Origin: Nemertoderma westbladi
Lineage: Eukaryota > Animalia > Xenacoelomorpha
Assembly: GCA_032718475.1 (NCBI GenBank)
Contig: JAUCBJ010008112.1
Location: 3,660-67,659, forward strand
DNA length: 64,000 nucleotides
Direction: 5' to 3'
Shown: positions 10,572-29,312 of the stretch, piece by piece
Numbering within the stretch: the stretch's first letter is position 1
Layout: each line of letters opens with the position of its first letter
Program-made: the position numbers and the translations under genes
Notes under the pieces: generated by a model
Database searches by the model: none
Told to the model about the DNA's origin: nothing
The model's input: the letters and a program-made list of their open reading frames with translations, nothing else

Positions 10572-13463
10572 TTAGTCATTCTTTCGTGAACGGCATTTAC
10601 GAAGTTTTTTGAGGCTAGTAAGAGTCCTTTTCTCTTTGGGGCGAGCCACTTTACTAGGAGGGCTATAACTCCTGGGTGAGGGGTGCAATACAATTGCATC
10701 GGAAGGTTTCAGATTACAGTCGGTGTATCCGCCAGTCGAGGTACCCGGTTGATCGATATCAACCTCAGTGGAACGAGGTCGAACAACCTTTAGAGCGCGT
10801 TTCAGGACAGCAGCTCTTACTGGTCCCTGACGGGTCGTTTGCACGATAGCGGTAGGTTGACTGTGAGTAGTGAGAAATTTCCTTGGTTTGATGGTTCTTT
10901 CCAACTCGCGTTCTCTGGCTTTATATTCATATGGTCGTCTATGAACTTCTTGTAGCTCTGGATGCGAGTTTATGAACAAGTCACCGTATTCCGGATCCTG
11001 ACGGATGAAGTTGATCAAGTTATAGGAATTCAGGTTATTAGGATTAATATTCCTAAGATACTTGCGAACAAACTTAGTTGAAATATTCTCGCCAACACGC
11101 TTCATCAGCTCGTAGCTAGGAGTGCGAGATTTTTGCTCAATGGAAGCAAAGAGATATGGGTGAAATGCATAGATTCCTTCATATGCACGTCCAGGATAGT
11201 ATCGATGACGTGATTCGCAATGGAGATCCGCGTTAGCTTCCCAAGCTCTGATGTAACGCAGGGCAACCATTTTGTCTACGCTTTCTAGATCTCGGTTGAA
11301 AGGGCAATCGAAACTTGCGTGTCCTTTAAACTGACAATGATGACATTGAGTCATAAATTGAGGACAGACTGCGAAGATGTGTAGATTATTGAGTCTACAA
11401 TACGCACAATAAATCTCCATAGCAGGCTGTTCTTTAAAGTAGGAGCAGAGTGCGTTGGAGTCCGCCGGGGTAAAGTGATCTCGTGATGCACATAATTGGC
11501 AACGTTTCCTAGAAATATAATTGGCATGCCGATAATCGTATGCTGTGAGACATTGTGGACCTTGATACCATTCCAGCACATAATCATTGTCACTGCTCCT
11601 GGGCGCTGTGGATTGAATCTCCTCGGACTCCAAGCAAATTGGTTCGTCTTCCAATTGCATAGCTGAGGTAGGTGTAGCTGTTTCCTCAAGGGAACCCACT
11701 GTTTGAACTTCCACAATAGAATAACCTGTGGGAATTCGGGGTCTTTGTATGACAGATGAATGTAGGTTCTGTATACAAACGTCCTTAAAAATGGCGAATC
11801 CAGCGCTGTCCAACTTCTCAGCAGCCGAGTCTCTTAAGCTGAGCTTGGTCAGAGCGCGGTCCTTGAACTGACTATCAACGTTGCGGAACAGAGTCAGAAA
11901 GCGCCTAAAGCATTCGAATCGAATGAATTTATTGTGTTCATCTAGCTTGGCGAGTTTGGTTCCGAGCAGTAAGGGATGAGCGCGTATAGTACGACTGCAC
12001 ACATCGGCTAGCCAACCGGCAAGTGCGGCGTTCTCGAAGATAGTGTATATAGCTAATGAGGGACGGAGTGGAACACTCATAAAGCTATAGACGACGCCAG
12101 GTGCGGTTAATGGTCCGTCAAAATATAATCGAGAATAATGATCTCCATATATTTGTTGGTAGCTGACAGGGTTTCCGACTTTGAAATTCCATCCGTATTC
12201 TTGGAAGGAAAGATGTCCAATAGAGGTTCGTTGTACTTTATTGATTCCGCTTGATGTATTAGCATACATAGTTCGGAAGAAACCTCGGCCTTCTGCCCAG
12301 GGAGCAATCAGCTGGGTGTCTACGAAAGGATATGGGATATTCTCCATGTTTCTGAAGTCATTTTGGAGATCTCCATAGATAGCTGAGCCGATTTTAAGGA
12401 TTCTCTCGTCAAACAGCATCTCGAGCACTGGCTGGGGTAGCATATATCCATCTATACCCATGGCCGGTTTGCGCTCGGTATCAGTAACATAACGCTGCGC
12501 GAGTTCGAATTGTCCATGTCGGAGTTTCTTTTGTATCTCGGTGAGAGTCTCAAAAGAATAATCGATCACGTCGCAACACGCTCGAGTAAACACAAGGGTA
12601 GAACCAGCTAGTCCTCTTATGTGTATCATTCGCGTAGTTCCCAGTTCTCCAACCGGAACGCTACCTTCGTTATCGTAAGTAACAACTCCATACATTTCGA
12701 TAATGTTAAGAGTTTCATTCCACTCTTTAGTGGCGTTTTCTATGCTCATACCCACCGGATGCCATAAGGTTGCGCATTCGCTTGCGTTAGGTAAATCGCT
12801 ATACTTCAGATAATGTGTAGTATGAGTCTCTGCATCTCCGTATTGCTGTATTCTCTCTTCCTCGAACAATACATTGAGATTCCAATGGACTAATCGAGTT
12901 TTAATAAATCCATCGAGATTATACGGAAGTATTATGTCCTTTTCTATTCTTGAAACATTATAAGGTTTTCTGAATGAGTTTACCTTAACCAATTGGTCTA
13001 AATGTTTCTGTAGTTGTTCGAGTTCAACAAGATCAAGGGGATTTATCAATGGTAGAAACTTTAAACTGTATGTAGGATCTTCAGGTTTCACCATATAATA
13101 TTGAGTTAAATTGACATAATAGGGGTGGTCTTTGATCCCATAAAATGAGTTCGGTAAAGGTCTAGCGCGTAGGTTGACCTCGTGTACCATATGACGGACA
13201 AGATCCGCCCGATTGTCCGGAGGTTCAACGAGTATACCGTCGACACGAGCGGCCTCGATTGGCGGACGTTGTAACATAGGAGCGTCAGCGATAAGATCTC
13301 TAGATCTTAAGTTGATATCAACCGTTTGGGGTTGTACCATGGCGAAGAGTTTGTCTCCGAAATGGGGAACCATCGAAGGATGAATGATGGTTTTGGAATA
13401 GAGATCAGTCATAAGGATTTTAGCTTCTGGCTGGGCTAAAGCCGCTTCTTCTCTTTCATCCAT
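10572..13463 (-). CDS. Element A ORF2, main open segment: DEDDy-like 3'-5' exonuclease + three Zn knuckles
   Basis: ExoI VTYDNEG, ExoII LFDERILKIGSAIYGD, FVDTQ, ExoIII-like PLRPSLAIYTIFE. Knuckles CQLCASRDH, CAYCRLNNLHIFAVC, CHHCQFKGHASFDC. Homologous to the C-terminus of element B's polyprotein. Confidence 0.75.
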   Translation of the reverse strand: MDEREEAALAQPEAKILMTDLYSKTIIHPSMVPHFGDKLFAMVQPQTVDINLRSRDLIADAPMLQRPPIEAARVDGILVEPPDNRADLVRHMVHEVNLRARPLPNSFYGIKDHPYYVNLTQYYMVKPEDPTYSLKFLPLINPLDLVELEQLQKHLDQLVKVNSFRKPYNVSRIEKDIILPYNLDGFIKTRLVHWNLNVLFEEERIQQYGDAETHTTHYLKYSDLPNASECATLWHPVGMSIENATKEWNETLNIIEMYGVVTYDNEGSVPVGELGTTRMIHIRGLAGSTLVFTRACCDVIDYSFETLTEIQKKLRHGQFELAQRYVTDTERKPAMGIDGYMLPQPVLEMLFDERILKIGSAIYGDLQNDFRNMENIPYPFVDTQLIAPWAEGRGFFRTMYANTSSGINKVQRTSIGHLSFQEYGWNFKVGNPVSYQQIYGDHYSRLYFDGPLTAPGVVYSFMSVPLRPSLAIYTIFENAALAGWLADVCSRTIRAHPLLLGTKLAKLDEHNKFIRFECFRRFLTLFRNVDSQFKDRALTKLSLRDSAAEKLDSAGFAIFKDVCIQNLHSSVIQRPRIPTGYSIVEVQTVGSLEETATPTSAMQLEDEPICLESEEIQSTAPRSSDNDYVLEWYQGPQCLTAYDYRHANYISRKRCQLCASRDHFTPADSNALCSYFKEQPAMEIYCAYCRLNNLHIFAVCPQFMTQCHHCQFKGHASFDCPFNRDLESVDKMVALRYIRAWEANADLHCESRHRYYPGRAYEGIYAFHPYLFASIEQKSRTPSYELMKRVGENISTKFVRKYLRNINPNNLNSYNLINFIRQDPEYGDLFINSHPELQEVHRRPYEYKARERELERTIKPRKFLTTHSQPTAIVQTTRQGPVRAAVLKRALKVVRPRSTEVDIDQPGTSTGGYTDCNLKPSDAIVLHPSPRSYSPPSKVARPKEKRTLTSLKKLRKCRSRKND

Positions 13464-14832
13464 TTCGATGTGCTTCTCCTCGAGCTGATTTTCCTCCGCT
13501 TCTCATTGGAAGCGTTCGTCCAAAAACTCTTGTAGAGAGTATGTTCGTCCAAGTTCGATATCTTCTTCGAGATTCTGGATTTCCCGATCGAACTGGGGTA
13601 AAGCCAATTCCTTTACCGCTTGGACTTGCTGCTGCAATTTACGTTTATCTAAACAATCGTAGGTTCCTTTTCAGATCTTTTTTCGAATAGCGTCTAACGC
13701 ATTTCGTACAACGCTCTCCTCCACTTCGGTGACAGGTTGTATCGGAGTTAACCCGGGACGATTATATGGGTTGAATGGCGATATTAGATGTCCGTGTCCC
13801 AATCCGGCTAGGTAGGATGGGCGAATATCTAGAGAGCCCACAACCGGAGTGCCACCGAATAATTGTTCAGGTAACACTAGATCTTTGAACAATGAATACA
13901 ACTCAGGAGGATCCGTCATACTATTAGGATCAAGAGCCCGAGGTCTCACCAGGGAATGAGGAGGTCTGACCGAGTATTCTGGAACTCTGATCATAGGTTT
14001 ATTTAAGGATCGTTTGAGTCGAGCGAGCGTAGGTGATACGTCGAACAAGTTTCGCTCGAAACTCCCATAAGTGTAGCTAGTAAAACTGTGTTTAGCGCAA
14101 CGTCTCCGCGGATGTTTATGTCTTTCCGTTTGTTGGTTGGGTCTAGGGCATTCATCGCAGTAATACCAAAGACGCATGTCTTGTAGGGGAAACGCTGGTG
14201 ATCTTTCTCCAGTTTTATAATATTCCTCCATCTGTTCGAAGCTATCCGGTACAACAGGTAGCGGTTGATCGGCGGTAAGATACATCATAGTGAAATAGAG
14301 TCATTTGATTTCTATCATAGGGTTATGATGTATACCTTGAGGATATCGAGTTTCTAGATTTTGTTGACTGGCTACATTGAGATATGTTTCTCTCAAGAAT
14401 TCCAAATATTCGTTGAAGTCACTGCGTTTATCCGGCTCTTCAACATTCAACATCTTCTCTTTCGAGTCGGTTTCGAATATAATTTTCATGTTCGATTCTC
14501 AGTTTATCATTCCGACTCCGCTGGGTATGATACTTAAATAGAATCATTTCCATTTCGGTGTCTACATCGTCCGTATCATGTAAATCGATAGGATGACCAG
14601 TAGTTAAGAAGTCCATATACGTACCATTACGATGCGTATAGCGAGCGGTGAATTTTCTATAGTCCAATTCACGCTGGAGCTGTTCCTTTGACATTGGCGG
14701 TTCGATATAGCGGCCATCGTCTTCCGTAGTATGTTGACTAGCGTCGCCGCTTATTAAGCTATCAACAAACGCTTGCAATGGTGGGGTATATCGCTCCCTG
14801 ATACCAAGATCATCTTCTATCAACTCAGTCAT
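13464..14832 (-). pseudogene. Element A ORF2, disrupted N-terminal part
   Basis: 14489 to 10572 is one reading frame broken by three TGA codons, plus one frameshift near 14470. K*LYFTMMYLTADQPLPVVPDSF aligns with B's SRLYHTMQYLKAHEPMPAVRDEF, and a CxxC...CxxH motif is shared. Confidence 0.75.
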
Positions 14833-15945
14833 AGCTGCTATATGAGTTTATCGATATTATAATTGATAATAATTAGGCCAGCGGTCGTTGCTGCCTCCCC
14901 CTCAGTGCCCCCGGACAGCGCAAGATCCTCAGCGCTGATGCACTGTCGTCGCTGTGCCTCTCGCCAACGTAGTAGCTACACAACGACAACAATAACCAGC
15001 GCGAGTCACTCCACTGTCCGTCCCAAGGGCTTAGATATACTGGAGGTACTTGCTATAGAGGCAGGGTAACTTTCACAACTGCGACTCGCTACTGTAAACA
15101 CACTTTAGTAGTAACATTCACCTATAAATACACAAATTCCACATTCCTGTCACAATTTGTACAAATTCGGGCCATTTGTCCGTTAGTCAAATGCCTTCCA
15201 GAATGCCACGTTATTATTATGTATCCCTGGATACTAGCAAGGTGCTATTTATTCCGCATTCTATTCAATGGGGCAAGCTTTCTATTGTTCTTTTAACTCA
15301 CTTCTAATTCTAGCGTGGTTGTTGCTATGGTGACATTATGGAAAGCTAGCGGTAGAATTAGAGTAATTCTCATGCATACAGATCTGGGATGCTATTTAAT
15401 AGTGATTCTTTAATTGTCATTATTCCCTTTATACATGATTTTATGAATTTTATCGGCTATTGACTGTACACTGGAGATTCTCTCACACTAATATACTTAA
15501 TAGGGTGAATCTCTGCTCCCATGATCTATTAATTAATGGAATTTTGGGAATGTTATAAATTGTATAAAATGACAATTTATCAAATTCATGAGAGGATATG
15601 AATTTAAAATTTATTCCCGTGAATTTTATTATTTGATATTAAAATAGATACAATTTTATTCCAGAACATAGCTGGGAACTAGGATCCTTAATTCCAGAAA
15701 TTTGTCTTTTAAGAGTATCGGTAAGTACTACGATACCTTAATCGACTAGAATTTTAGAGGATCGAAATTTTTAACAGATTTTGATTTATAAATTTTCTAG
15801 AGTCAATTTGTTAGCATTTCCTCTATTTTAACATTTGTTTTAACAAACGTAATAAATATTTATTACATATTTAATATTTAAGATGGGCACCGATTTATTC
15901 CAGAACATGTCTGGGGACGTTAACCACTGATTCTAGAATTTTGTC

Positions 15946-17876
15946 TATAGAATTATATTCCCTAAATGCCGTGGATTTTCAAAATTTTATTTTATTCGGA
16001 TTAACTTTTGTAAAGATTGCTTTAAGTTCTCATTCGTATTGGTTCTATCATTTGTACATCTATCGGTCAAGTGGTTCAGTAGCTCAGTTGGTAGAGCGTT
16101 GGAAATTATATGTGTAGTAGGTATCGAGTTCGAATCCTAGTAAGTGCGAATTATTTTTTGTACAGAATTTCAACTCATTTAAATTAACCGCTACAAATTA
16201 ATTGCATTCGTCTGTACCAATGAGGCTGTAGTTATTTGATTGTAACCAATGTCGTGCAAGTTATATATTAGCTGGACCAATAGCTATCTTTAAAACCCCG
16301 TTAGAACCCATAGAACAATCGAGAATTTTCTCGATTGATTGCGGCACAAATTTGCTATATAAAGGTGCGATTTGTTCATTAGTTATCAATCTACACTACT
16401 TCAATATTCTCTCAGTTATTTAGTTATCTGATATTTGTTTATTCTGTGCTTAGTTTATTCTCAGATTACATTGTATTATAATTGTATCTTCTGTAATAAA
16501 GTCAGAATATTCTCTCAGCTTTTCTATCTGTTTTACTATGGATTCACTACGGTGAACAAACTCAGGGACAGGATGGCCGGCTAGAGATCGGGCCGCAGCA
16601 ATGAACGGGAACATCACGGGAATGTAGACGAGAGACAACCCGCAATACCATCTAGAGTTATTCGCCCATCGCCTGAAAGGTTAGACAGCGTTCGATCCTT
16701 GCTACCTAAGTATAAGACCAAAAGATCAAAAGGTAGACGTAGTGACACGCTGTAAGCCCAAAATTACATCATAGGGACTGTACTGTCTTGATTCAGGAAA
16801 ACCCACAGTAGACCTTCACATTCCTACGGGGGAGGGAGAGCGCAGGCAGATACTAGTACGCAGATAGGACGTAGGCACACCGGTACAAGGCATACACATT
16901 GGTTAGGGTGCAGCAAACTGTACGCTTAACTCTTGCTAAGTACAGGTGCGCGTGCGACTATTTGCAGTACGACAGTGTCCATTGCATTAGAACTTGTAGG
17001 CTAGGGGGGTTGCTGTGTTTTCACCTGAATTGGGATTGTACCGTTCAGGCGGTAGGGCAGTTTACGTACTAGGCGCAAATAAATTGAGGCTATCAGGGAT
17101 ACTAACATCTACCGTGTCCCCGCCAACGCCCTAATAGGAAGTTACCCGGACTACCTGGGTGACTAAAATTCTAGATAGGAGCCAGGATAGCTATTAGTAC
17201 CTGTACGCCTACAGTAGTAAACTAACACATCTCTTCTTAGTATCAGGGACCTGGTACCTAAAATTGCCGAATTCTGGGCGTAGTATTAACCTTATGCCTG
17301 AATTTGAGTCCTGGAAATACGCAAGAGGGGAAGGAACCTTATCATTCGTGAGTATTGGACCTACAAGTTACAAAATTAGAATATTCGTAAATGCACACCG
17401 TACCCAGTAATTATATATGTGAAGGAGCAAAACTGTTTTGACCGTTCAGAATTAACACACGCGCGTTAGAAATTATTTACACCTCGAAATATATAAAATT
17501 AACTTTGTCCGTACTGTGCTTTGCCCGCTAGTTAGACATCTCCAAATCTCTGCCTGTACCTAGCTAGCGTCCCTTTGCCCAACCATATAAATCACACCGC
17601 GGCAAAGTATACGAGCCCCTTAGTCCGTCAGTGAGTCAGCCTGATTTTAGGATTCGCTGTGCGGGATTTTGTTTTATCGAAGTTTGTCTGCTCGTAGACT
17701 GTTTTCTGCCTCACCGGTTATAAGAGATCAATACTGCAATATATTCGCTTACTTAGAGTTTACTGTTTTGGTGAGAAGGTCGGATTTATGATTTGATTTA
17801 CAAACTTTACAGTAAGATATTGCAGGTATTGTTACCGTCTCTTCCAATAGTAGGAATAGGCGTATCTCTTCAATTA
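15946..17876 (+). repeat. 5' LTR of element B
   Basis: Matches 30100-32030 at offset 14154, with only three substitutions noticed by eye. CCAAT boxes at ~16217-16281 and TATATAAA at ~16357. Confidence 0.95.
16072..16160 (+). ncRNA. tRNA-like Pol III cassette inside the LTR (second copy ~30226-30314)
   Basis: A box TAGCTCAGTTGGTAGAGC, B box GAGTTCGAATCC, then a T6 run. Acceptor and anticodon stems do not form convincingly. Confidence 0.6.
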
Positions 17877-17887
17877 GTAGGAATGTG
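17877..17887 (+). promoter_or_regulatory. putative self-priming PBS of element B (GTAGGAATGTG)
   Basis: Abuts the 5' LTR, lacks TGG, and is the exact reverse complement of CACATTCCTAC at 16817-16827. Confidence 0.55.
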
Positions 17888-18683
17888 TTTTACTGAACTA
17901 CGGTTCGGTAGGACTAAAGTTATTTGAAAATTTTGTATTTTGAGGTAAAAATTTGTATTTGATTAGCTAAGTGCTAATTTTAAAATAAAATTTGATTTGA
18001 ACCGCGTGTAAAATATTTTTGGAATTGAATACCGGTGTTTAAAAGGGTTTAAATACCATATTGTACCGGTACAAAATTTTCGTAAAGTAAAACCTAACTC
18101 TTTTGTTTTTTCAGGATTCAGAACTCATTTCTAGACTGTAACGGGAGCAAGACCGTGTTTAGCAAGTTTGGGAGATAGATAACTCAACAACTTTGGTTGG
18201 GAAAATCGCGTTTCGTCCGCAACGTTAAAAACGGAAAGGTTCACGTTCGGTTTGTATCTGGGAATCTGTTTTTCTGGAGAATTATTGGAGTGGGTGAGTT
18301 CGAAAAGTTGCATAAATAAGTTAGGCATTACCGTATTAGTTAAAATTATTGTGGGTTCCACTGTCTCAAGTATTTATGCATTCCGTATGATTTCTTTGTT
18401 CATTGCTGAATTAGTCCGTATTATTGTATTTAATTTACCTTTTGATAACGCATATCGTTATCCGATTTATTTGTTATAAAATTGGCTGCTAGGCTAATTT
18501 TATTATATACTTATTCCGTGACATTTATTTGCTGTAAAATTGGCCGTTTAGGCTAATTTTATCCATCTGCTATAAAATCGGCCGGTAGGCTAATTTTATA
18601 AGACTGTAATTAGTACCGTTTTGTATAAATACGGTAAAACTCGATACTTTGACACTCACTTTACTTGACTTACAACTACCGAA

Positions 18684-21600
18684 ATGAGTGACAAACAAGA
18701 CTATACGAAAAATACACAAACCGACTATGACTCATGTGACGCGGATAAGTCAGCAGCGGAAGGACAACAGGGGAAGACTCGCGAGCCTACCGAACCTACA
18801 CCGTGTGCGTCACCAGTACATCCAACGGGAGTACCGGATGCCGTAGTACGAGGCGACGGCAGGACCGAGGACTTTCTAACTGTTCCGCAACCTAGATACA
18901 GGGAAACGGACATGGTAAGTTCAGCAGGAAGCACAGAAAGTGTGGTTAGAAGCGTCGGAGGTTACATGGCGCATATAACCAGGAGTATTGGAGAAGGCCA
19001 ACGCATATTAGACGGGTTGACCGCTCCGATGTCTCGATTCGAGTTCTACACCCTCCAGGTTAGAGTACAGAGTAAAGTATATAAGTCCGTAGATAATCTA
19101 GTTGGCCTACAAGATCTAGCTAGACAGAGACAGGACATGGATACTCAACTTAGAATCCTCGAGAAACTAATGATCACTAGAGAGAAACTGATTCAGTTTA
19201 AGTCGACGATTAGACAGATACAACAGGAACAAGCGGACCAGTTGTTAGGTGAGTCAGTTTCGGACGAATTATTACAACCCGAGGAAGAACAGGAACTGTA
19301 CCGACTGGATGGACAATTAAAACACCTGACGGACCACTTACGTATGTGCGGCGAAGACGTCGGAGATTGGGAAACCGTGCCGGAATATACGAAGGAAACT
19401 TCACCCGTACGAATTGAATCGGCACCGGGAATACTGGACCAATCGTTGGTAAGTATTCGTAGCGAAATCTGCGAGGGAAGTATAGTCACGTCAGAAGTTG
19501 CTCGACAACAGCAAGAATTCCACCGACAACGACAAGAAATGGAAGAACAAGCTCAACTTCTAGTGATGCAAGCAGCAGTAGAGGAAGAGAAGCTACGCGT
19601 TGCGAATATAGCAAGAATCTCTCATCTACAGGAACAAGCTGAATTAGAAGCAGCTGAAGTAGAAAGGTTAGAAGTAGACATTGCCCGACAAGCGGCAGCG
19701 GCAGCGGCCGAGGTAGAGCGACGAGCGGCAGCGGCCGAGTTAGAGCGACGAAACGCAGCGGCCGAGTTGGAGCGACAAACGGCAGCGGCAGAATTACAAC
19801 GAGAAAGGTTAGTTTCGGAAGCGCGGGCCGAAATGAAAACACGGCAAATAAAAGCTCAATCCGCTATACGACAAGCGGAGTTTGAGGCGCAACGACAACA
19901 AACGGAACAACGAGAGAAGACAGTGAAACTTCATTTCGAACTCGAGAAGAAGGCGAGAGAATTAGCGAACGCCGAGGAAGATTTGGATCAAAAGGCCCGC
20001 GATAGATCGATGAGATCTCGTGACGGACATGATTTGGACCAGTTAGAGGTAAGACATCGCCAAATTCAGGAACGGAAGAAGGAAGGAAGCGTAGGAGCAC
20101 CCGGACGGGAACGACAATTAGTAAAAGACGTGTGTCAACGATTCCCACAGGTAACTCATATGTTTGCACCGGTTACGAGTAAGGAACCTGTTTCGATTGC
20201 GGGTAGTAGTGATATTTCTCCTATCCATGGTGCGACGGAACACAGGTTTGTTATTCCGGACGAGTTTACACCGCCAAGAGCAACGTCGTCGCCCATTCCG
20301 AAAGTCAAGGTAAGTAACCCACCGATTACGGATCGTAGTAGTTTATTGACCGGACCTGCGCTACTGACGACAAAACAGGTGAGTCCACCGTCGACACCTA
20401 AACCCGTTACACACTACGCTTACCCAATGACGTTTCGACCAACAAGGCCTTTGGATTCAAATGCTGTCATTCGCCCACCGAACCAGTTTACATCGCAATC
20501 TACGACTTCGAGGAAGACTTGTGAGCCTACCGAACAACGGAGAACAGAGACGCGACCATTCAACCATTTTACATCGCAATCTACGACTTCGAGGAAGACT
20601 TGTGAGCCTACCGAACAACGGAGAACAGAGACGCGACCATTCAACCAGTTTACATCGCAATCTACGACTTCGAGGAAGACTTGTGAGCCTACCGAACAAC
20701 GGAGATCAGTGGACGATGTTCCGAAACGAAACGTGAGAATTCGTACGACGCAACGAACGCGAGCACGTCGACCACCATATCCGGATGATAGTAGTACTTC
20801 GAGCGAATCGGATTACCCGAAACGCGAGGTATTTAGAACAGGGGCGGCCGATGAATATAAACGCGAGCGTTCAGACAACTCCTTTGCAGACAATCCTCCA
20901 CAGAATACACCAACACAGAAGGCGTTACAACCAACGGACGCAATTAGTACACAACAGTTCGCCGACATCCTGCGACCAGTTGTTAACAAGTTGGCTCAGA
21001 TCGAGGAACGTCTGGAGGAAGGTTACACCGACAGTTCGAGAAATTCCGAATTCGAACACAATAGACACCCGAAGGAACCACAAAGACCGGTACCTTCAAA
21101 CCCCACATCGTATCAGGGAAAAGCGCCAAGAAGGGATATCAACCAAGTTACCAACCAAGGACGCGAAACTCTGAACGTTGCCGAGGAGATAGCGAAATTC
21201 GCAGCCAGACAGGGATTGCCGGTACAACAACCACCGAAGTTCTCCGGTAGCTCAAAACACTGGCATACCTTCGTAGACTATATCGAATCCCAGATCGCCG
21301 TGTGCGCCTTTACATCACGGGAGAAGTTCAATTACTTGCTCCAAACGTTGTCAGGAGAACCTAAACGTTTGGCGGAGACTTTCGTCGGTGTACCGGACGC
21401 TTTCGAACTAGCGTACGATCGTTTAACTTCGATATACGGAGGTACAGTGAGCATGGCCAGGTCAGTAATAGAGGAACTCTGTAAGGGAGGGGCTATCACT
21501 AAACCCGTCGACTTACTAAAACTAGCTGACGAGATCAAGAACGCTATCACTACCTTAAGATCAATTGGACAACTTGATTACGGGAATACCCCTACAGTCC

Positions 21601-24600
21601 TATTAAAGATAATAGGACGACTCCACCATCGACTTCGTCGGGAGTGGAGGAAGGTCGAATACCAGCGAGAGGAGCGGGGAGGATTCTTAAAATTAGAAGA
21701 TGTGTACCTTTTAATATCCAGGGAGGCGGTAGTAGAAACTCGATCTAACTACACCGACCAGCACATCGTGGCAGAAGGAATCACACTGCCATCCTCTAAC
21801 CGACAAAAACCCCAGACAACATCCACTAAGACGGCCACTTACGCCACACCGACGGAATCACGACAATTCTCAGACGGTAATAGAGTATCTGCGCCCATTG
21901 GGACGAAACAGACGAGACAGCAACTCAGCACCGACTTCAGTGGCTGCCAATACTGCGAGCATCTAGGTAAGCGGTATATCGGTCACAAGTTACGAGGTTG
22001 TCGACAATTTCGCGAGTTGAACTCGGAAGAACGACGGCTGCAAATACGGCCACTGGACTCTTGTTGGCGGTGTACGCGACACGGACACGTCCGTAAAGAC
22101 TGCCCAAATACCGACACTTGTCCATCCTGTGGACGCAATCACGACGGTCTGCTCCACACAGACAGCCACACGCCGACGAAACGCTTCGCCAGGGAACACC
22201 CGGAAGCAGCAGCGAGATGTGATGCGGCTTACCAAAAACGAGAATCAAAAACGACTCCAACCTTCGTGACCCATATTGAGGATTGCTTCTCAGAACAATC
22301 CGGATCGTCGGATGAAGAATCAGAAGACGACGATGAATATTCCAATGGAGACGAACAACCGTCGATCGCGCTCCTGACTACTGATCAACTGAAGGGATTC
22401 AGTGTAATCCCGATTAAGGTTACTGGCACAAAGGGGAGCAAGAGGATCTATGCGATTCTAGATTCAGCCTCATCCCATAGCTACGTGGACGAAAAGATAG
22501 CTGACGTCGTGACGGATCTAAAACAAGGTAAGCACGTCAGTTATACAGTAAGTAGTATGCACGGACAGCGTGCAATACCAGTGACACGAGTCAAGTTAAA
22601 CTTAGACTCTCTTCTTCCAAAATCGCAACACAGCGAGAGGGAGAGGTCTTTGTTGCCCTTTAGAGATCTAACCTTTGCGGCTACGAAGGACTTTAGTAAC
22701 CTACTAGGTCCAGTACCGGAACAATCTCTAGAGGACCGTAAGTATTTCAGACACCTTGGTGTACCCGAATGTCCTGTCAATTATAGATCGGTAGCAATGC
22801 TGATCGGGACAGACCAATTCAACCTACATCAGGTGTGGGAAACCAGACCATCGGCAGTTGTAGCGGGAAACGCATACGCCTGCAGAACGCCGATAGGGTG
22901 GTATACTCGAGCGCCTGTGCGCACACTAGACGTAAGTGACGAGGAAGACGATGTACAGAGTACATGTAGTTTATTAACTACAAATTCAATTCATTCCTTT
23001 TCACACGACGTGAACCATACTACACTACAGTCGACAAAACACGACAGACGTGTAACTAGTATGATAAGTCACAAGGAGCAGCTAACCCACAAGGTGAGTT
23101 TAGAACTTGGGGAGAAGACGAGTCAGCTGGAGATTCCATCGACGACAGATGATAGGCTTGCGAGTCTACCTACCCCAATAACCTCAACAGTGCCCGTCGA
23201 TATCGATGATGACGCGTTGAGAAATCATCAGTTGGAACAAGCCGCCTTGGACAAAGAATTAACGGAGAAGACTATCAGGTGGTTAGAACAAGATACAGCT
23301 GAACCTGGTAGCTACGAACCTTGTATGTCGGAACAGGAGAAACAATCTCTGAAGATCATGGAAGATACTATCCGCCAGACGAAAGACGGACATTATGAGG
23401 TAGGGATGTTATGGCGTAGCCAAAGTCCTAAACTTATAAACAACTATCCACTGGCTTTAAGACGTCTACACTCAATACGGCAACGTCTATTGAAGGACGA
23501 GAAAGCCCATCTGCAGTATAACACTCAGATGGAGACGTATTTGACAAAGGGATACGCTATCCGAATGACTAACCCGGAGCGAGTGACCGACCAGACGTAC
23601 TACTTGCCACATCACTACGTGAGACACCCCGACAAACCAGACAAAGTACGTGTAGTCAATGACTGTGCGGCTCTGTTTGAGGGAATGTCCCTCAATAGTG
23701 AGTTGATGGATGGACCGAACATGAATAATTATCTTATGGGGGTGATTATGCGCTTCCGTCAGCGTCAAGTAGCCTTTACTTGCGACGTTGAAGCGATGTT
23801 TCACCAAGTAAAAGCGTTAGAGCGAGACAGAGACAGTTTGCGGTTCCTCTGGTATCCGGAAGGAGACTTAAGCCTACCACCAGCGACTTACCAAATGCAA
23901 GTTCGCGTTTTCGGTGCCAGAGACAGCCCAAATTGTACGATGTACGCCCTAAAGCAAGCCGCTAGGGATCAGAAACATCTATATGACCCAGAGATAATTA
24001 GAATTGTGGAGCGTGACTTTTACGTTGATGACGGATTACAGAGTTGCGACACAGTAGAACGTGCTACAACAGTAGCACATCAATTACGGGACTGCTTGGC
24101 GGGCGGAGGTTTTAACCTCACCAAATTCGCCTCAAACAGTGCCGAATTAGTAGACTCATTCGGAACTACTGAGCGTGGAGGTGGTGACATAGACCTAGAG
24201 TTCGAACCACTACCGACGACTAAGGTGTTAGGGCTCTTTTGGGACCCAAACACAGACAACTTTCGAGTGAAGGTGAGACTGGACAGTCAAGGGAACACAC
24301 TGACAAAGAGATCATGCTTGTCAAAATTGAGCCGATTGTTCGATCCGTTAGGATTCATCAGTCCAGTGATACTGCAAGCCCGCATTTATATGCGCAGTAT
24401 CTGGAAGGATGGACTAACATGGGACGAGCCGATCTCATCAGACCAAGTGGACTTATGGAAGACCTGGGAGGCGGAATTATCTTCGCTAGAGGATTATTTC
24501 ATACCCAGGGTTTACTTTCCATTGCAAAGTACATTTCCTGACAACTTGGAACTACACTGTTTTTCTGACGCCAGTGACAACGGTTTTGGTGTGGCAGCGT

Positions 24601-27600
24601 ACTTACGCAGACAAGTAGAATCAGACGAGTTCGATGTTTCGCTCATTACTTCTAAGGCTAAGACCATGCCTACTAAGTATATGACGACACCACGAGCCGA
24701 GCTACAAGCCGCAACCCTGTCAACCACCATCGTGAACCTCATACAGACAGAACTACAGTCGAGTTTACAGATATTTTATTGGACTGACGCGACGTTGGTT
24801 TTATTTTACATAAACAACGACACACTCGAATTCAAGACATTCGTTGCTAACCGTCGCGCGGAAATTCTAGACCGTTCAATAAAAGGGGATTGGCGACATT
24901 GTCCCGGACCACAAAACCCAGCTGATATTGCGTCGCGAGGAATGATGCCTGAGGAATTCTGTAAACCGGAGAACAAAGAGTTTTGGCAACACGGACCCCA
25001 GTTCTTGCAGAAATCGACACAAGATTGGCCTCCGTTATACGACAACAAGTCCAACACTATTCCCAAGGACGCCGAAATCAAGAAACCAAAAAAGGGGAAG
25101 ACAAAGAAAAAGACGACGGCGGCGAAACTCAAGAAAAAACCGAAGGCGAAATGGAAAGATATAACTTCAAAGGTCAAGAGAGGAAGACTTGCGAGCCTTT
25201 CTACACCAGACATATCGCCAGACGGTCAACCAGACACGTTACCAGACGGTCAACCAGACATGTTACTAGACAGCCAACCAGACATTTTGCCAGACATATC
25301 ACAAAATGTTCCACCAGACGCTAGTAACACACTGACAAACAGTAAAGCCGCAGTTTCCCTATTGGAGCGGCCTTCTATTGACAAACAACCAGATACGTTA
25401 CTAGACGTATCGCCAGACACATTACTAGACAGTCGACTAGACACTAGTAATGTATTGACTAACAATAAAGCCGCAGTTTCCCTATTGGAGCGGCCTTGTA
25501 TTGACAAACTACCAATTTTGACACACTTGAGCAACCATAAGCACGGTGAAACCTCATGTATTACAGATGTTAACTACACCCTAATTATGGAGAAAGGGAT
25601 ACAAGGAGAGCCGAGATGGGGATATGATATCCAAGAGGAGGCAGCAGCACCATTCGAAAGATTTGGAGCCAAGGATTATACTATATTCGGTATAAAAGAA
25701 TTATCGGAAAGTACAGCGAAACTCGCGAGAACTAAATATGACTCGAATGTATTAAAGAGAAGGCAAAACGCATTGAACGAAAGAATCGAAAGTTTGCGCC
25801 AAACCTTCAACGAACTTTACCCGTACGATGCTTTGTGTGATACGGGAGACATTAGCGAAGACCCCGATACTGAAATTAGTCGTTTGTATCATACCATGCA
25901 ATACCTAAAGGCGCACGAACCTATGCCCGCGGTACGCGATGAATTCGATGGAATGCATCTTTACAGACGAACTCGAGGGGACGATAGAGAAACCAAGGAA
26001 GCATTTTCAGTTTATAAACTTTATTATCAATGCGGTTCTTGTATGCGCGAACAACGAAATGCGATTCCGATGCGTTTGAATAAGGAAAATCCCGAACCGA
26101 TATTGGCGAGGTGTTCGAATCATCAACAACTACGCTACCAGGAAGGAGGGTATCCTTTATCGAATCCATATCATTCATTTGCTATGACCGGACCAAAGGC
26201 GGGAGAAACTGTCATTTACCCACCTAAGGTTGTTGAACCCGATGTATTTGAACTTACGCTGGACGAGGCGAATCAGTCAACCCGCGAAAAGAAAGAAGCT
26301 CTTAGCCTATACAGAGCCTACAAGGCTTTCGAGAAAGGTGAGATGGAAGAATGGGGTGGAAGACTCGCGAGCCTACCTTGCCATTGGACGTCACACGATC
26401 AAACTTCAGCTAAGGAGATGACACCGGAAGTTTTCGAGAGCATAAACTTTGCTCAAAACGTTATTCAGAGACTACAGATTGCATCCCCGGAGAGGCCAAG
26501 AGAAATGCAACCGTATAGTACTTCAACTACGAAACCATTGAGTACGACACTCAATTTCCCTATTAGTATACCAGTCCGACAGGATACGACGTACGAAATA
26601 CCCATCGTGGATCATCCAGAAATCATTTCAAACTTGGAGTTTCTTCCTGCAGTTGTTTTCAGCGATATGAGTAAGATATATGATTTACGTAGACATATTA
26701 CTCAAAAGGTCGTGCACAACGTTCCACCTCATATTCAAGATTTCAAGGAACTGGATAGAGCTGGTGCCGACATAGCTCCGAGTAATCTGAAAGGATATCT
26801 AACCAAGACGATTCGTTTATGGATTGGAACCGGAACCTTCGAGTCGGATACAGATATTGCCGCAGATTGGCGAGGTAAGGTTATTCGTTTCGATGAGGAT
26901 AAGGATATAGAGAAGATTTGGCAACCTTCGGAAGAATTGTTGGATGAATGGACTAGGACGTTTAGATCGTTTCAGGAAAACGGTTATATGTTTTACGATA
27001 ACGAGGGCGGCAGTCATCAGCAGAGTTTGACTTCTAAGACTATACAGATTAGAGCGGCGGACGGAGTCCTGCACGTTTTCAGTAGACAGAGGAGCGACAA
27101 ACGAATGCCGATACCTCCAGCGAATACAAAGCGACACCATCTTATCACCGATATAGTAAAGAAGATGGACCAAGCTTGTAATATTGACGCTAGAATGCTA
27201 CCGAAGATGGTAAGAAACATGATTTTAGATAAAACTGTTGTAAAGGTTGGATCAGGAGTAAGGGAGGATTTAATTAGCGACTTCGCCGGCATGACGGACA
27301 GCGATGACCGACTACCGACACCATACGTCGACACTCGACCTCTTATTCTGTGGTCTATAGAACAGGGATATTTTCGTGAGTATAATACTCAGAAGACTGG
27401 AACTGGATACATTTCCTACCTGTTATTCAATTGGGATTATAAGGAAGGTAAAAGAAACAAGTATATTGAAACTTATGGAGAAGGTGATACTCCAGATATG
27501 AGTGAGTTTGAATCACAGCTTAAATGGAGAGGATGCGTGTATTGGGCTATTACGTCACCTCCAAGAGCGGTCTTACAATATTATTTAGCAATAGAGTCGT

Positions 27601-27722
27601 CAGTGAATGTTTGCCTAATCGCCGACATCGTGTCTCGGACTCTCAAAAGACATCCACTTTGTCTCGGAGAAGATCATACGTTCTACATGGAAGGGAGAAT
27701 TCGTACCGACGTGTTTAGATGA
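18684..27722 (+). CDS. Element B polyprotein: Gag - aspartic protease - RT - RNase H - novel region - DEDDy-like exonuclease (no integrase)
   Basis: Gag PPKFSG..W..F and EKFNYL, Bel/Pao knuckles CWRCTRHGHVRKDC and CPSCGRNHDGLLH. PR ILDSAS. RT YYLPHH, CDVEAMFHQV, FYVDD. RH FSDAS, PRAEL, WTDA, NPADIASRG. Then FYDNEG, ILDKTVVKVGSGVRED, YVDTR, YYLAIE. Confidence 0.92.
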   Translation: MSDKQDYTKNTQTDYDSCDADKSAAEGQQGKTREPTEPTPCASPVHPTGVPDAVVRGDGRTEDFLTVPQPRYRETDMVSSAGSTESVVRSVGGYMAHITRSIGEGQRILDGLTAPMSRFEFYTLQVRVQSKVYKSVDNLVGLQDLARQRQDMDTQLRILEKLMITREKLIQFKSTIRQIQQEQADQLLGESVSDELLQPEEEQELYRLDGQLKHLTDHLRMCGEDVGDWETVPEYTKETSPVRIESAPGILDQSLVSIRSEICEGSIVTSEVARQQQEFHRQRQEMEEQAQLLVMQAAVEEEKLRVANIARISHLQEQAELEAAEVERLEVDIARQAAAAAAEVERRAAAAELERRNAAAELERQTAAAELQRERLVSEARAEMKTRQIKAQSAIRQAEFEAQRQQTEQREKTVKLHFELEKKARELANAEEDLDQKARDRSMRSRDGHDLDQLEVRHRQIQERKKEGSVGAPGRERQLVKDVCQRFPQVTHMFAPVTSKEPVSIAGSSDISPIHGATEHRFVIPDEFTPPRATSSPIPKVKVSNPPITDRSSLLTGPALLTTKQVSPPSTPKPVTHYAYPMTFRPTRPLDSNAVIRPPNQFTSQSTTSRKTCEPTEQRRTETRPFNHFTSQSTTSRKTCEPTEQRRTETRPFNQFTSQSTTSRKTCEPTEQRRSVDDVPKRNVRIRTTQRTRARRPPYPDDSSTSSESDYPKREVFRTGAADEYKRERSDNSFADNPPQNTPTQKALQPTDAISTQQFADILRPVVNKLAQIEERLEEGYTDSSRNSEFEHNRHPKEPQRPVPSNPTSYQGKAPRRDINQVTNQGRETLNVAEEIAKFAARQGLPVQQPPKFSGSSKHWHTFVDYIESQIAVCAFTSREKFNYLLQTLSGEPKRLAETFVGVPDAFELAYDRLTSIYGGTVSMARSVIEELCKGGAITKPVDLLKLADEIKNAITTLRSIGQLDYGNTPTVLLKIIGRLHHRLRREWRKVEYQREERGGFLKLEDVYLLISREAVVETRSNYTDQHIVAEGITLPSSNRQKPQTTSTKTATYATPTESRQFSDGNRVSAPIGTKQTRQQLSTDFSGCQYCEHLGKRYIGHKLRGCRQFRELNSEERRLQIRPLDSCWRCTRHGHVRKDCPNTDTCPSCGRNHDGLLHTDSHTPTKRFAREHPEAAARCDAAYQKRESKTTPTFVTHIEDCFSEQSGSSDEESEDDDEYSNGDEQPSIALLTTDQLKGFSVIPIKVTGTKGSKRIYAILDSASSHSYVDEKIADVVTDLKQGKHVSYTVSSMHGQRAIPVTRVKLNLDSLLPKSQHSERERSLLPFRDLTFAATKDFSNLLGPVPEQSLEDRKYFRHLGVPECPVNYRSVAMLIGTDQFNLHQVWETRPSAVVAGNAYACRTPIGWYTRAPVRTLDVSDEEDDVQSTCSLLTTNSIHSFSHDVNHTTLQSTKHDRRVTSMISHKEQLTHKVSLELGEKTSQLEIPSTTDDRLASLPTPITSTVPVDIDDDALRNHQLEQAALDKELTEKTIRWLEQDTAEPGSYEPCMSEQEKQSLKIMEDTIRQTKDGHYEVGMLWRSQSPKLINNYPLALRRLHSIRQRLLKDEKAHLQYNTQMETYLTKGYAIRMTNPERVTDQTYYLPHHYVRHPDKPDKVRVVNDCAALFEGMSLNSELMDGPNMNNYLMGVIMRFRQRQVAFTCDVEAMFHQVKALERDRDSLRFLWYPEGDLSLPPATYQMQVRVFGARDSPNCTMYALKQAARDQKHLYDPEIIRIVERDFYVDDGLQSCDTVERATTVAHQLRDCLAGGGFNLTKFASNSAELVDSFGTTERGGGDIDLEFEPLPTTKVLGLFWDPNTDNFRVKVRLDSQGNTLTKRSCLSKLSRLFDPLGFISPVILQARIYMRSIWKDGLTWDEPISSDQVDLWKTWEAELSSLEDYFIPRVYFPLQSTFPDNLELHCFSDASDNGFGVAAYLRRQVESDEFDVSLITSKAKTMPTKYMTTPRAELQAATLSTTIVNLIQTELQSSLQIFYWTDATLVLFYINNDTLEFKTFVANRRAEILDRSIKGDWRHCPGPQNPADIASRGMMPEEFCKPENKEFWQHGPQFLQKSTQDWPPLYDNKSNTIPKDAEIKKPKKGKTKKKTTAAKLKKKPKAKWKDITSKVKRGRLASLSTPDISPDGQPDTLPDGQPDMLLDSQPDILPDISQNVPPDASNTLTNSKAAVSLLERPSIDKQPDTLLDVSPDTLLDSRLDTSNVLTNNKAAVSLLERPCIDKLPILTHLSNHKHGETSCITDVNYTLIMEKGIQGEPRWGYDIQEEAAAPFERFGAKDYTIFGIKELSESTAKLARTKYDSNVLKRRQNALNERIESLRQTFNELYPYDALCDTGDISEDPDTEISRLYHTMQYLKAHEPMPAVRDEFDGMHLYRRTRGDDRETKEAFSVYKLYYQCGSCMREQRNAIPMRLNKENPEPILARCSNHQQLRYQEGGYPLSNPYHSFAMTGPKAGETVIYPPKVVEPDVFELTLDEANQSTREKKEALSLYRAYKAFEKGEMEEWGGRLASLPCHWTSHDQTSAKEMTPEVFESINFAQNVIQRLQIASPERPREMQPYSTSTTKPLSTTLNFPISIPVRQDTTYEIPIVDHPEIISNLEFLPAVVFSDMSKIYDLRRHITQKVVHNVPPHIQDFKELDRAGADIAPSNLKGYLTKTIRLWIGTGTFESDTDIAADWRGKVIRFDEDKDIEKIWQPSEELLDEWTRTFRSFQENGYMFYDNEGGSHQQSLTSKTIQIRAADGVLHVFSRQRSDKRMPIPPANTKRHHLITDIVKKMDQACNIDARMLPKMVRNMILDKTVVKVGSGVREDLISDFAGMTDSDDRLPTPYVDTRPLILWSIEQGYFREYNTQKTGTGYISYLLFNWDYKEGKRNKYIETYGEGDTPDMSEFESQLKWRGCVYWAITSPPRAVLQYYLAIESSVNVCLIADIVSRTLKRHPLCLGEDHTFYMEGRIRTDVFR
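20481..20706 (+). repeat. 81-bp in-frame tandem repeat (~2.8 copies) in element B gag
   Basis: NQFTSQSTTSRKTCEPTEQRRTETRPF units start at 20481, 20562 and 20643. Confidence 0.9.
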
Positions 27723-29312
27723 TTCCTTGAACCCTTCTACAACTCTGACGCTCAGTGTAATGCCTTTACTCGAGCAGGATTTAGTATATTTCGAGACGTG
27801 TATCTTCGCTGTGCGGGATCTCTTATCGAAAGACCATCTATGTTTACATTGTTACCCTATGAAGGAGAACGTATCGTGGAGATTACGGAAGAATCACGGC
27901 AGACGCGCGCGCCTATCGGTCACCTTGGTGATGAATTCGAAGTAACTACTACGATCGCCGACGATCCTTTAGAGGAACTTCTTGAGATAGAAAGGAACCT
28001 CCCGAAGAAATCTCAGACGGAGATTCGACAACTTGAAGCAACAGATGCTATAGTTTGTATACAACCTTCAGAAACCTACCAACCCATAGACCCAGATGAT
28101 TATGATTATAGTATGGGAGGAAGCGCTCGACCGATTGGAGATCTTATATACGAACGAGTGTGGTACCCTGCCAATACGATGTGTAGTAAATGTGGCGTCG
28201 CTGGACATCATATGGCAAAGTGCAGTGGAAAGCACATTACTACGACTCAGCTAATCTGTGGATGGTGTGGGGATCAAGGGTCTCATACCTTTTATACTTG
28301 CTGGAGATTTATGGCTCAATGTACTTACTGCAATATAAAGGGACATCGAGCATCTGAATGCCAACTGAGAGACATACCTTATGAACACGAATCTGTAAAA
28401 CTCGTGAGGAAGTTATTTGATGAGTGGGAAGATTTAGCCGACGAACATGTATCGGCACAGAGAAGACGGTTTCCGATGAGAGCGCATCTCGGATTTTGGG
28501 CGGTAAATCCCCAGACGATGATGTCGGAAGGATATATCTCCGCTATGCCCCAATACGACGAACTTATCGAGGTTGTCGATATTTTGCCCCACGACAGCGG
28601 ATTCCGAGTGGTGCGCGAGTATCTGTTACAAATTCACCCGGATAACAAAAACACGTGGAATTTTCAGAAAGTCGTTAATCGGATTACGTATGGTGAATTC
28701 GATCGTTTCCGAACTGAAAAACGGAATAAAGGAGCTTGGTTAACCGTCGCATGGGCGTACCGAGCCGCGTTTTACCACAAACGTATACGAGCGAGCGTAT
28801 TCGAGGAAGAGGAGGTCCTAGAGGCGACAAATATATCAGCCACTCCGGTTGCGCCGTCTGCACGTCACCCTCGGGAGGACGGGCAGGGTAGGATCATACG
28901 GGTCCAGAAGGTGGGCCAACAATTAAAGAAAATTATTAATGTAGAAGAACGCAAGGGAGTTGAGCCGACTATTCGAGTTACTCGGGATACGGTATCACTT
29001 CCAAGAGAACCAGTAGGAGGATCGGGACATACACCAGCTGATCAACAGGGGGCGCAAGCTACTCTTGGGTCTGCGTCGTCCACTTCTCGCGCGTTCCCAG
29101 ACGTTCTACCAACTGTAGTGACAACTGATCGGTCACGAGGAATCGGTCGAGGTTTTGGGATGCTAAATAAACGAATTTGCGAGGAAATAGTCGCACCATC
29201 TCTCAACGTCCCAAGTAAACCAGTGACTCGCCCCACAAGTCCCATATCGCGAGCAAAGTCACCTGTGCGCAGTTTTCGAGGACGCGGCAGGGCTCGATCC
29301 ACTAAGCGATAA
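27723..29312 (+). CDS. in-frame continuation of the element B polyprotein (three Zn knuckles, basic tail) after a single TGA
   Basis: Same frame as 18684. VFR*FLEPF aligns with A's CFRRFLTLF. Contains CSKCGVAGHHMAKC, CGWCGDQGSHTFYTC and CTYCNIKGHRASEC. Confidence 0.8.
   Translation, partial: FLEPFYNSDAQCNAFTRAGFSIFRDVYLRCAGSLIERPSMFTLLPYEGERIVEITEESRQTRAPIGHLGDEFEVTTTIADDPLEELLEIERNLPKKSQTEIRQLEATDAIVCIQPSETYQPIDPDDYDYSMGGSARPIGDLIYERVWYPANTMCSKCGVAGHHMAKCSGKHITTTQLICGWCGDQGSHTFYTCWRFMAQCTYCNIKGHRASECQLRDIPYEHESVKLVRKLFDEWEDLADEHVSAQRRRFPMRAHLGFWAVNPQTMMSEGYISAMPQYDELIEVVDILPHDSGFRVVREYLLQIHPDNKNTWNFQKVVNRITYGEFDRFRTEKRNKGAWLTVAWAYRAAFYHKRIRASVFEEEEVLEATNISATPVAPSARHPREDGQGRIIRVQKVGQQLKKIINVEERKGVEPTIRVTRDTVSLPREPVGGSGHTPADQQGAQATLGSASSTSRAFPDVLPTVVTTDRSRGIGRGFGMLNKRICEEIVAPSLNVPSKPVTRPTSPISRAKSPVRSFRGRGRARSTKR

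Follow-up and report, generated by a model that had tools for sequence, protein, structure and literature searches.

Two nested Bel/Pao retrotransposons of Nemertoderma westbladi carry a third gene for a predicted DEDDy exonuclease with triple knuckles

We describe two Bel/Pao retrotransposons, A and B, that lie nested in a 64,000-nucleotide stretch of Nemertoderma westbladi DNA (contig JAUCBJ010008112.1; hereafter the window), and that each carry a third gene, ORF3. Our reading, which is tentative and to which we give somewhat less than an even chance, is that ORF3 is a DEDDy exonuclease-triple-knuckle third gene of two Bel/Pao families, selected in at least the B family, whose product would likely act as an RNA-trimming accessory against small-RNA silencing.

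The initial annotation had proposed two diverged Bel/Pao elements, and the Bel/Pao identity of A and B was borne out by Pfam matches above the cut-offs to Peptidase_A17 and DUF1759 in both. Their parts, in window coordinates, are the following.

9393-10540, minus strand: 3' LTR of A (approximate limits), recognised by homology to the sequence upstream of a sister element, C
10572-14832, minus strand: A ORF3, broken, spanning about 1420 codons, with 976 aa in its longest uninterrupted frame
32675-40097, minus strand: A gag-protease-RT-RNase H-integrase, in several broken frames
15946-32030, plus strand: element B, with paired LTRs and a 5-bp target duplication
15941-15945 and 32031-32035, plus strand: left and right copies of the 5-bp target-site duplication of B
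15946-17876, plus strand: 5' LTR of B, 1931 bp, termini TA...TA
18684-25586, plus strand: B gag-protease-RT-RNase H and a Lys-rich repetitive linker, lacking integrase by Pfam
25570-25571, plus strand: B-family breakpoint, 16 nt upstream of the ORF3 ATG
25587-29312, plus strand: B ORF3, ATG at 25587, 1241 codons, one premature stop
30100-32030, plus strand: 3' LTR of B, delimited by LTR comparison

B is inserted within A, where it separates the pol of A from its ORF3, and the empty insertion site (joint 15939 to 32031) was recovered in four of four public runs. Direct LTRs and a short target-site duplication are both present in B, and the LTR pair has three differences over 1931 nt. TG...CA termini are the usual rule for LTRs and are applied to Bel/Pao, but those of B run TA...TA. 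In A, ORF3 is followed by an LTR resembling the sequence upstream of C (55141-55828; 68% over 706 nt, E 4e-78); A showed no near-identical 5' LTR, and a piece at 43560-43770 has 67-75% similarity to the start of the 3' LTR. A matches Integrase_H2C2, DUF5641, Peptidase_A17, and DUF1759, and keeps the PR-RT-RH-IN order, though its frames are broken. In the B polyprotein, DUF1759 covers aa 858-995 and Peptidase_A17 aa 1879-2040. The RNase H regions of A and B share 44% identity, and in a tree with five other Bel/Pao elements the two fall together (support 87/86, not starred). ARAGORN and Rfam returned no match. A and B resemble standard Bel/Pao elements in the DUF1759 Gag, the Peptidase_A17 RNase H region, the gene order of A, and LTR lengths inside published limits (up to 2427 bp; PMC3118150, in the portion available), and differ from them by an extra gene of 3.7-4.3 kb, and B also by its missing integrase and TA...TA ends.

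The extra protein, put at about 1300-1400 aa in the initial annotation, proved real, though the B gene is shorter than this. ORF3 of A stands as a separate 3' gene but not as the single open frame first described, since the frame shifts once near 14440 and is interrupted by stops near 14303, 13673, and 13505. Both window copies of ORF3 are broken, with the premature stop of B (27720-27722) lying between the exonuclease domain and the knuckles. Since contigs from runs X1, X2, and X4 (11, 2, and 2 contigs, respectively) have another reading here at all depth, this stop is private to the window copy. The predicted layout of the two proteins is given below.

13674-14300, minus strand: A N-terminal block, LYxTMxYL and CxxC...CxxH, common to B
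about 25884-26130, plus strand: B counterpart of this N-terminal block, common to A
11958-12785, minus strand: A predicted DEDDy-type exonuclease domain, from motifs, profile, and fold searches
12674 (D) and 12668 (E), 12371 (D), 12047 (Y) and 12035 (E), minus strand: A putative catalytic sites of ExoI, ExoII, and ExoIII, respectively
26907-27674, plus strand: B predicted DEDDy-type exonuclease domain, from motif alignment
26997 (D) and 27003 (E), 27267 (D), 27582 (Y) and 27594 (E), plus strand: B putative catalytic sites of ExoI, ExoII, and ExoIII, respectively
11304-11501, minus strand: A triple tandem Cys/His knuckles (Cx2Cx4Hx9C, Cx2Cx5Hx4C, Cx2Cx4Hx4C)
28182-28361, plus strand: B triple tandem CCHC knuckles (Cx2Cx4Hx4C, Cx2Cx5Hx4C, Cx2Cx4Hx4C)

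Aligned over about 690 aa, the A and B proteins are 27% identical (E 8e-61) and score 216 bits, where none of 100 shuffles passed 27.7 bits, while at the DNA level blastn found no match between the two genes (best E 0.16). The shared blocks reported at the outset were all recovered, namely LYxTMxYL, CxxC...CxxH, YDNEG, KxGSx4D, PxVDT, Yx3E, the three knuckles, and a basic tail (over the final 60 residues, K+R number 14 in A and 16 in B). Moreover, a block 3' of the B knuckles is conserved with A, and a linker of about 150 residues separates exonuclease and knuckles. The N-terminal block has no match in Pfam or the PDB. An origin of ORF3 as a Gag duplicate was rejected, as the third ORF3 knuckle is CCHC and the B Gag ends in CCHH, with no match between Gag and ORF3.

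Several lines, each weak alone, agree on a predicted DEDDy exonuclease domain closest to EXD2, WRN, Nibbler, and RNase D, as the initial annotation had proposed from motifs. A profile was built from four sequences, those of A, B, and two metagenome proteins, P0001 and P0002, which are known as proteins alone and have the same domain order of exonuclease and triple knuckle. This gave EXD2 as its single match among 177,635 PDB entries (E 0.011), with ExoI and ExoII in register; a two-sequence profile placed EXD2 at E 1.6 together with a spurious designed TIM barrel, and a single-sequence PDB search gave nothing relevant. NCBIfam returned RNase D (E 0.0025), and PF01612 clusters made up 24 of 30 ESM Atlas matches (best score 0.92), where the top match was a hypothetical protein with 153 shared features against the usual 170. 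Pfam did not call an exonuclease domain in A or B, and PHROGs gave no match. The AlphaFold model of the domain, whose size suits an assay, has a mean pLDDT of 50.1 and a pTM of 0.52, with 64-79 in the core blocks and about 34-50 in the ExoIII region; a first model from two sequences (pLDDT 30.7) was discarded. Judged by title, DEDD nucleases or DEDD-domain proteins account for 39 of the 41 rows listed by Foldseek, none of which reached E 0.001 or better, and for 49 of the 50 listed by VIA. The best structural alignment was to EXD2 (Z 8.6, rmsd 3.5, 101 aligned), and the predicted model thus has the DnaQ/RNase D-like fold that the earlier proposal called for. Overall, the best profile and fold matches are EXD2, WRN, Nibbler/MUT-7, EXD1, and Egalitarian, in which ExoI and ExoII align, but ORF3 departs from this cellular family in its low structural-alignment identity (9-19%), its large insertions, and its ExoIII glutamate.

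The ExoI DxE, the ExoII Asp, and the ExoIII Tyr are invariant in all four members at 22-33% identity, and the fourth site is acidic throughout. The E-for-D change at ExoIII noted earlier in both window copies was seen again (Yx3E), and extends to P0001, with canonical Yx3D only in P0002. Because of this, we regard ORF3 as a DEDDy-fold variant rather than a canonical member, and the window proteins may be weak or dead enzymes; our literature search turned up nothing published on what a D to E change does at ExoIII. Accordingly weighed as an alternative, though an unlikely one, is that ORF3 encodes an RNA-binding pseudo-nuclease with little or no cutting, for transport, packaging, or decoy of element RNA or silencing factors, by analogy with EXD1, Maelstrom, and Egalitarian. 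Besides the three Yx3E members, the presence of Egalitarian and EXD1 among the fold matches, the large size of the protein, its extra N-terminal Cys/His block, and the conserved block 3' of the knuckles would suit such a role, as would the description of EXD1 and Maelstrom in the PMC5408684 text as inactive DEDD derivatives that still bind RNA. The invariant sites, the acidic fourth position, and the complete canonical set of P0002 argue against it.

Genes of this kind have precedents. DEDDy third genes are already known from the bdelloid rotifer LTR retrotransposons Juno and Vesta and from the Athena/Terminon elements, so the rotifer precedent named at the outset was correct (PMC5408684, as far as its text was available). 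Here, the likeness is in an RNase D-like gene behind pol, in env position, with one altered acidic residue, but the rotifer motif is DEED and that of A and B is D-E-D-E. Compared by description, the rotifer elements are not presented as Bel/Pao in the available text, which also reports neither a triple knuckle nor a 1200-1400-aa size. The separate ORF behind pol is found in A, whereas the fusion in B is probably secondary. Dada DNA transposons likewise carry a DEDDy exonuclease, albeit within a DDE transposase and with all four catalytic residues intact, and they are not retroelements (PMC3706591, in part). Like ORF3, the trypanosome RNase D TbRND has tandem CCHC knuckles after its DEDD exonuclease and lacks an HRDC domain, and its knuckles raise RNA binding and cleavage (PMC7797062, available portion). 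It is, however, a host enzyme of the mitochondrion; its domains extend only to near residue 375, and it has four knuckles and a 28-residue linker, in contrast to the transposon-borne ORF3 with its three knuckles, longer linker, and long N-terminal part. TbRND was among the fold matches and gave no sequence match in the PDB searches.

That ORF3 instead encodes a replication helper, packaged with element RNA, that trims 3' ends ahead of integration, whether of tRNA primer, genomic RNA, or cDNA, strikes us as improbable. Its knuckles are similar to those of retroviral nucleocapsids, 3'-end processing has been proposed for the rotifer and Dada domains (PMC5408684, PMC3706591; both in part), and the TA...TA ends of B are unusual. 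Yet none of five ordinary Bel/Pao loci from metagenomes has an ORF3-type exonuclease domain, so the core Bel/Pao cycle does without it, and the A gene is separate from Pol.

In the window copy of B, Pol and ORF3 are joined in frame, as was first noted, but our results do not support reading this join as designed: integrase is missing from B, and the copies break at the very point of fusion. The match of A Pol to B is confined to residues 7-282, the RNase H part, and for want of integrase B is classed as a non-autonomous derivative. In contigs from the public runs, differing sequence follows 25570 and differing sequence precedes 25571/25579, with loose ends behind 25570 in X4 and X5 (one contig each; the RNA nature of X5 is a guess) and before 25571/25579 in X1, X2, and X4 (one to two contigs each). 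Run X4 also has a joint from 25202 to 25571. Because the contigs diverge here, the fusion is probably a deletion joint, and this deletion probably removed the integrase and brought ORF3 in frame with Pol. An RT proofreader permitting a 16-18 kb genome, in the manner of nidovirus ExoN, which is linked to genome growth, is very unlikely. It would gain from the in-frame link to RT-RNase H and from element lengths roughly double the Bel/Pao median (7.4 kb), but Bel/Pao elements up to 22.8 kb are recorded (PMC3118150, same portion), much of the extra length is ORF3 plus the long LTRs, and the A nuclease is a separate gene.

Purifying selection on ORF3 is supported for the B family at least, in line with what had been presumed from motif conservation. 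Among the 40 best-supported of 91 variants, in non-independent contigs of the B family only, synonymous changes account for 18 of the 24 listed in ORF3, where 24-31% would be expected (p between about 1e-5 and 2e-7; omega roughly 0.11-0.15), for 4 of 12 in the adjacent linker, which serves as a control, and for 4 of 4 in RNase H. As for relatives, a search of 1.84 billion representatives, a library poor in animal genes, gave no close cellular homologue. The best Atlas match of P0001 was a euglenozoan exonuclease-CCHC cluster (0.86), which is a lead only. Word-based protein searches yielded no relative among 5719 and 2014 candidates, and among 5535 only P0002, itself a query member. No relative was confirmed in viral contigs, metagenome contigs, or prokaryote genomes, and these blank locus scans say little, as the collections contain little animal DNA. 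Our searches found neither a DEDDy third gene in Bel/Pao nor one with the exonuclease and triple-knuckle layout. Chance capture of a host gene that has since been a passive passenger is hardly credible, despite two broken window copies and the lack of a known genomic context for P0001 and P0002, given a gene common to two families with no DNA similarity remaining, mostly silent variants in the B family, and no close cellular homologue in that animal-poor library.

We return to the RNA-trimming accessory, for which a counter-silencing role is our best guess, by analogy with the arenavirus exonuclease as a precedent for counter-defence (PMC7968707, in part). ORF3 would normally be a separate ORF in env position behind pol, as in A. 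Its knuckles and basic tail may hold on to single-stranded RNA and pass 3' ends into the active site, much as suggested by the CCHC knuckles of TbRND. The protein would act in trans, because copies without the nuclease domain exist (joints 25726 to 27759 and 25746 to 27871), and B itself, after the probable loss of its integrase, was likely mobilised by integrase supplied in trans. The host's silencing RNAs may be the target, or RNA bound to these. DEDDy enzymes take RNA or DNA as substrates, so that the target cannot be read from the fold. Rodriguez et al. saw no clear relation between ORF3 and how many copies an element has, and held that a MUT-7-like role would restrain the element itself, and the ORF3s sequenced in that study were env- and GDSL-type only, and neutral (PMC5408684, portion available). 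A stronger version, which we consider doubtful, is that ORF3 of A and B forms, with P0001 and P0002, an old and hitherto unrecognised transposon-borne nuclease family of constant exonuclease and triple-knuckle design, and is an active D-E-D-E destroyer of piRNA/siRNA that would be the first Bel/Pao counter-silencing enzyme and would aid high copy number.

Exonuclease capture by LTR retrotransposons, seen before in rotifer elements, thus reaches Bel/Pao, here with a larger protein that bears direct marks of purifying selection. If the enzyme attacks small RNAs, these would be rare animal transposons with their own counter-defence against silencing; should it prove inactive, or a replication helper, it would still be a repeated, selected use of the DEDD fold by retroelements.

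Three Bel/Pao elements are present in the window, namely A and B, two diverged elements of which B is nested in A, and C, a sister of A, laid out as follows:

15946-32030, plus strand: element B, 16,085 bp, inserted into A
LTRs of B: 1931 bp each, with 3 differences between them, TA...TA ends and a flanking 5-bp duplication
~40097-32675, minus strand: gag-PR-RT-RH-IN of A, followed by a non-coding stretch that B interrupts
14832-10572, minus strand: ORF3 of A, the extra third gene, beyond the B-split non-coding stretch
~10540-9393, minus strand: 3' LTR of A, after ORF3 in A's order
57818-62122: element C, sister of A, with Gag and protease 68-71% identical

In B, the tie between ORF3 and the element is direct. 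As A's own 5' LTR was looked for in the window and not found, ORF3 is assigned to A by strand, order, and the 3' LTR, which itself shares 68% identity over 706 nt (E 4e-78) with sequence upstream of C. The empty site of B, seen as contigs joining 15939 to 32031, was recovered in all four public sequencing runs compared (14, 4, 1, and 1 contigs). Here, a 239-bp duplication with diverged units lies in A's non-coding stretch, and B is inserted into one of them (15630-15946 plus 32031-32123). In runs X1 and X2, the non-coding stretch (15000-15900, 32000-33000) shows a summed contig depth some ten times that of the B interior, suggesting that it comes from a far more abundant family, contig depth not being copy number. 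The LTR termini of B (15946-15947 and 32029-32030) read TA...TA and not TG...CA despite the clean 5-bp duplication, and the integrase that moved B may have had an unusual end specificity. Moreover, at 16073-16146 and at the corresponding position of the 3' LTR there is a stretch that resembles a tRNA and has motifs like an A box and a B box; neither ARAGORN nor Rfam called it, and it recalls the tRNA-like LTRs outlined for Helenus (PMC10886601).

C is a single open frame of 1434 codons in which RT is missing and both RNase H and integrase are mostly absent. Any ORF3 would fall outside the window; at 62293-64000, C is followed by a tandem duplication of 1029 bp. A remnant at 43560-43770 shows 67-75% similarity to the initial 250 nt of the A 3' LTR, with a CCAAT-box block common to both. 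Other repeats include the same 62-63-bp tandem repeat in two arrays 41 kb apart (1-533 and 41441-42599), a perfect 59-bp array just upstream of A gag (40105-40370), non-LTR retrotransposon fragments at 7710-9165 and 49521-50822 (the latter with RVT_1 and DUF6451), and, at 47019-49128, near-perfect inverted repeats that are nested, contain 92-bp tandem units, and resemble a foldback element or MITE.

The initial annotation held that A and B encode the same extra protein. When translated straight through, with X at every break, ORF3 spans 1420 codons in A and 1241 in B, and the two proteins share 27% identity over ~690 aa (E 8e-61, 216 bits; the best of 100 shuffles gave 27.7 bits) and, in an N-terminal block, 29% identity (E 5e-10). 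A search for DNA similarity between the two ORF3s found none. All of the motifs named at the outset were located in both proteins. Both copies are broken, A by one frameshift and three stops, and B by one stop between the nuclease and the knuckles; since all contig depth in X1, X2, and X4 reads otherwise at the B stop codon, this stop is private to the window copy.

The exonuclease domain of A and B received no Pfam call. A profile of both, searched against 1.84 billion representatives, matched two metagenome proteins at E ≤0.001, P0001 (648 aa, E 3.6e-8) and P0002 (558 aa, E 9e-4), each with one ENA record (contigs of 9449 and 7460 bp). Past the searched part, both continue with an acidic linker and then three Cys/His knuckles, as in A and B; the long N-terminal part of ORF3 is absent from them. 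A four-sequence domain profile matched a single entry, EXD2, among 177,635 PDB sequences (E 0.011; the ExoI and ExoII motifs align), and the A domain alone matched ribonuclease D in NCBIfam (E 0.0025). In the ESM Atlas, PF01612 clusters made up 24 of 30 matches (best 0.92; the top match, 0.93, is unnamed). The AlphaFold model built from the four sequences has a mean pLDDT of 50.1 and a pTM of 0.52 (core blocks 64-79), with the ExoIII part at low confidence. With this model, Foldseek gave no match at E 0.001, and 39 of the 41 rows listed are DEDD nucleases by title, with EXD2, Nibbler, Egalitarian, and WRN at the top. An independent VIA search of 48,161 chains placed EXD2 first (Z 7.6, rmsd 4.6, 108 aligned), 49 of 50 rows being DEDD nucleases or proteins containing such a domain, judged by title, and re-alignment with EXD2 gave a Z of 8.6 and an rmsd of 3.5 with 101 aligned. 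Among viruses, the matches (best E 1.6e-3) were 3'-5' exonucleases of Pithovirus and Pandoravirus. The profile, language-model, and fold matches are each weak but agree with one another and with the DEDDy assignment made initially; a DEDDy fold is predicted for the domain.

Selection, first read from motif conservation, was borne out for the B family. Among the best-supported 40 of 91 variants in 24700-27700, 24 fall in ORF3, and 18 of these are synonymous (24-31% expected; rough omega 0.11-0.15), with p values of 2e-7 to 1e-5 that serve as a guide only, because variant sites are not independent and only the best 40 of 91 were used. Within these same 40, synonymous changes account for 12 of 16 in the nuclease stretch, 4 of 4 in RNase H, and 4 of 12 in the linker just upstream of ORF3, the last being the neutral expectation. 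Purifying selection acts on ORF3 in B's family. No catalytic codon is hit by any of the 40 best-supported of the 91 variants.

In the window copy, ORF3 of B is in frame with Pol, as originally reported, but this is not a new fused design: neither Pfam nor protein comparison with A Pol found an integrase in B, and there is a breakpoint at 25570/25571. When contigs of four runs were compared with 24700-27700, some diverged from the window sequence after 25570 (X4, X5), and others with different sequence upstream joined it at 25571 or 25579 (X1, X2, X4), at most 16 nt upstream of the B ORF3 ATG (25587). This evidence amounts to one or two contigs per run among the loose ends listed, 139 further ones lying beyond that list, and contig counts give no share per form. 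On the simplest reading, an internal deletion took the integrase out and put the Pol linker in frame with ORF3. Further derivatives in X1, X2, and X4 skip ~2.0-2.1 kb of ORF3 within 25726-27871, with joints from 25726 to 27759 and from 25746 to 27871, and are thus B-family copies without the nuclease domain, whose existence fits an action of ORF3 in trans.

Five metagenome Bel/Pao loci (contigs of 5.7-6.4 kb) carry RT-RH-IN, and an ORF3-type domain was found in none of the five, though these contigs end shortly past the integrase, where a distant ORF3 could be missed. The RNase H of B is 44% identical to that of A and 31-34% to those of the five loci, and a tree of these sequences joins A with B (support 87/86, not starred); a single old acquisition is plausible. 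The rotifer precedent given in the initial annotation is real, DEDDy ORF3s being described in Juno, Vesta, and Terminon elements (PMC5408684; PMC6431247), and DEDDy domains are likewise mentioned for Dada transposons (PMC3706591). Recorded Bel/Pao lengths have a median of 7382 bp and a maximum of 22,762 bp (PMC3118150). Across titles and abstract beginnings in a literature collection with few subscription journals, no Bel/Pao element with an exonuclease gene was found.

ORF3 is a gene inside the element and common to two divergent families. Nibbler, EXD1, and MUT-7 have roles in small-RNA pathways, those of MUT-7 and EXD1 being described also in PMC5408684, and the ORF3 knuckles resemble those of nucleocapsid and AIR2. 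From the tandem knuckles and the RNA-acting relatives, we infer that the substrate would be RNA; the CCHC domain of TbRND increases RNA binding and cleavage (PMC7797062). Tentatively, ORF3 is a predicted counter-silencing factor that would trim the 3' ends of host small RNAs or degrade them. This reading, the leading one at somewhat under even chances, is preferred because ORF3 lies separately from Pol, it is not needed by ordinary Bel/Pao elements, copies lacking the nuclease persist, and Nibbler, EXD1, and MUT-7 offer precedent. An RNA-binding pseudo-nuclease is rather unlikely; the last acidic residue of ExoIII is indeed E in A and B, as initially noticed, and also in P0001, P0002 having the canonical D, and the ExoI D and E, the ExoII D, and the ExoIII Y are invariant in all four. 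A replication helper is slightly less probable still, and a proofreader or passive cargo would each be very surprising. Taken as a whole, ORF3 is a real, selected gene, accessory to the Bel/Pao elements that carry it; a DEDDy fold is predicted for it, it has a triple knuckle, and it is apparently undescribed.
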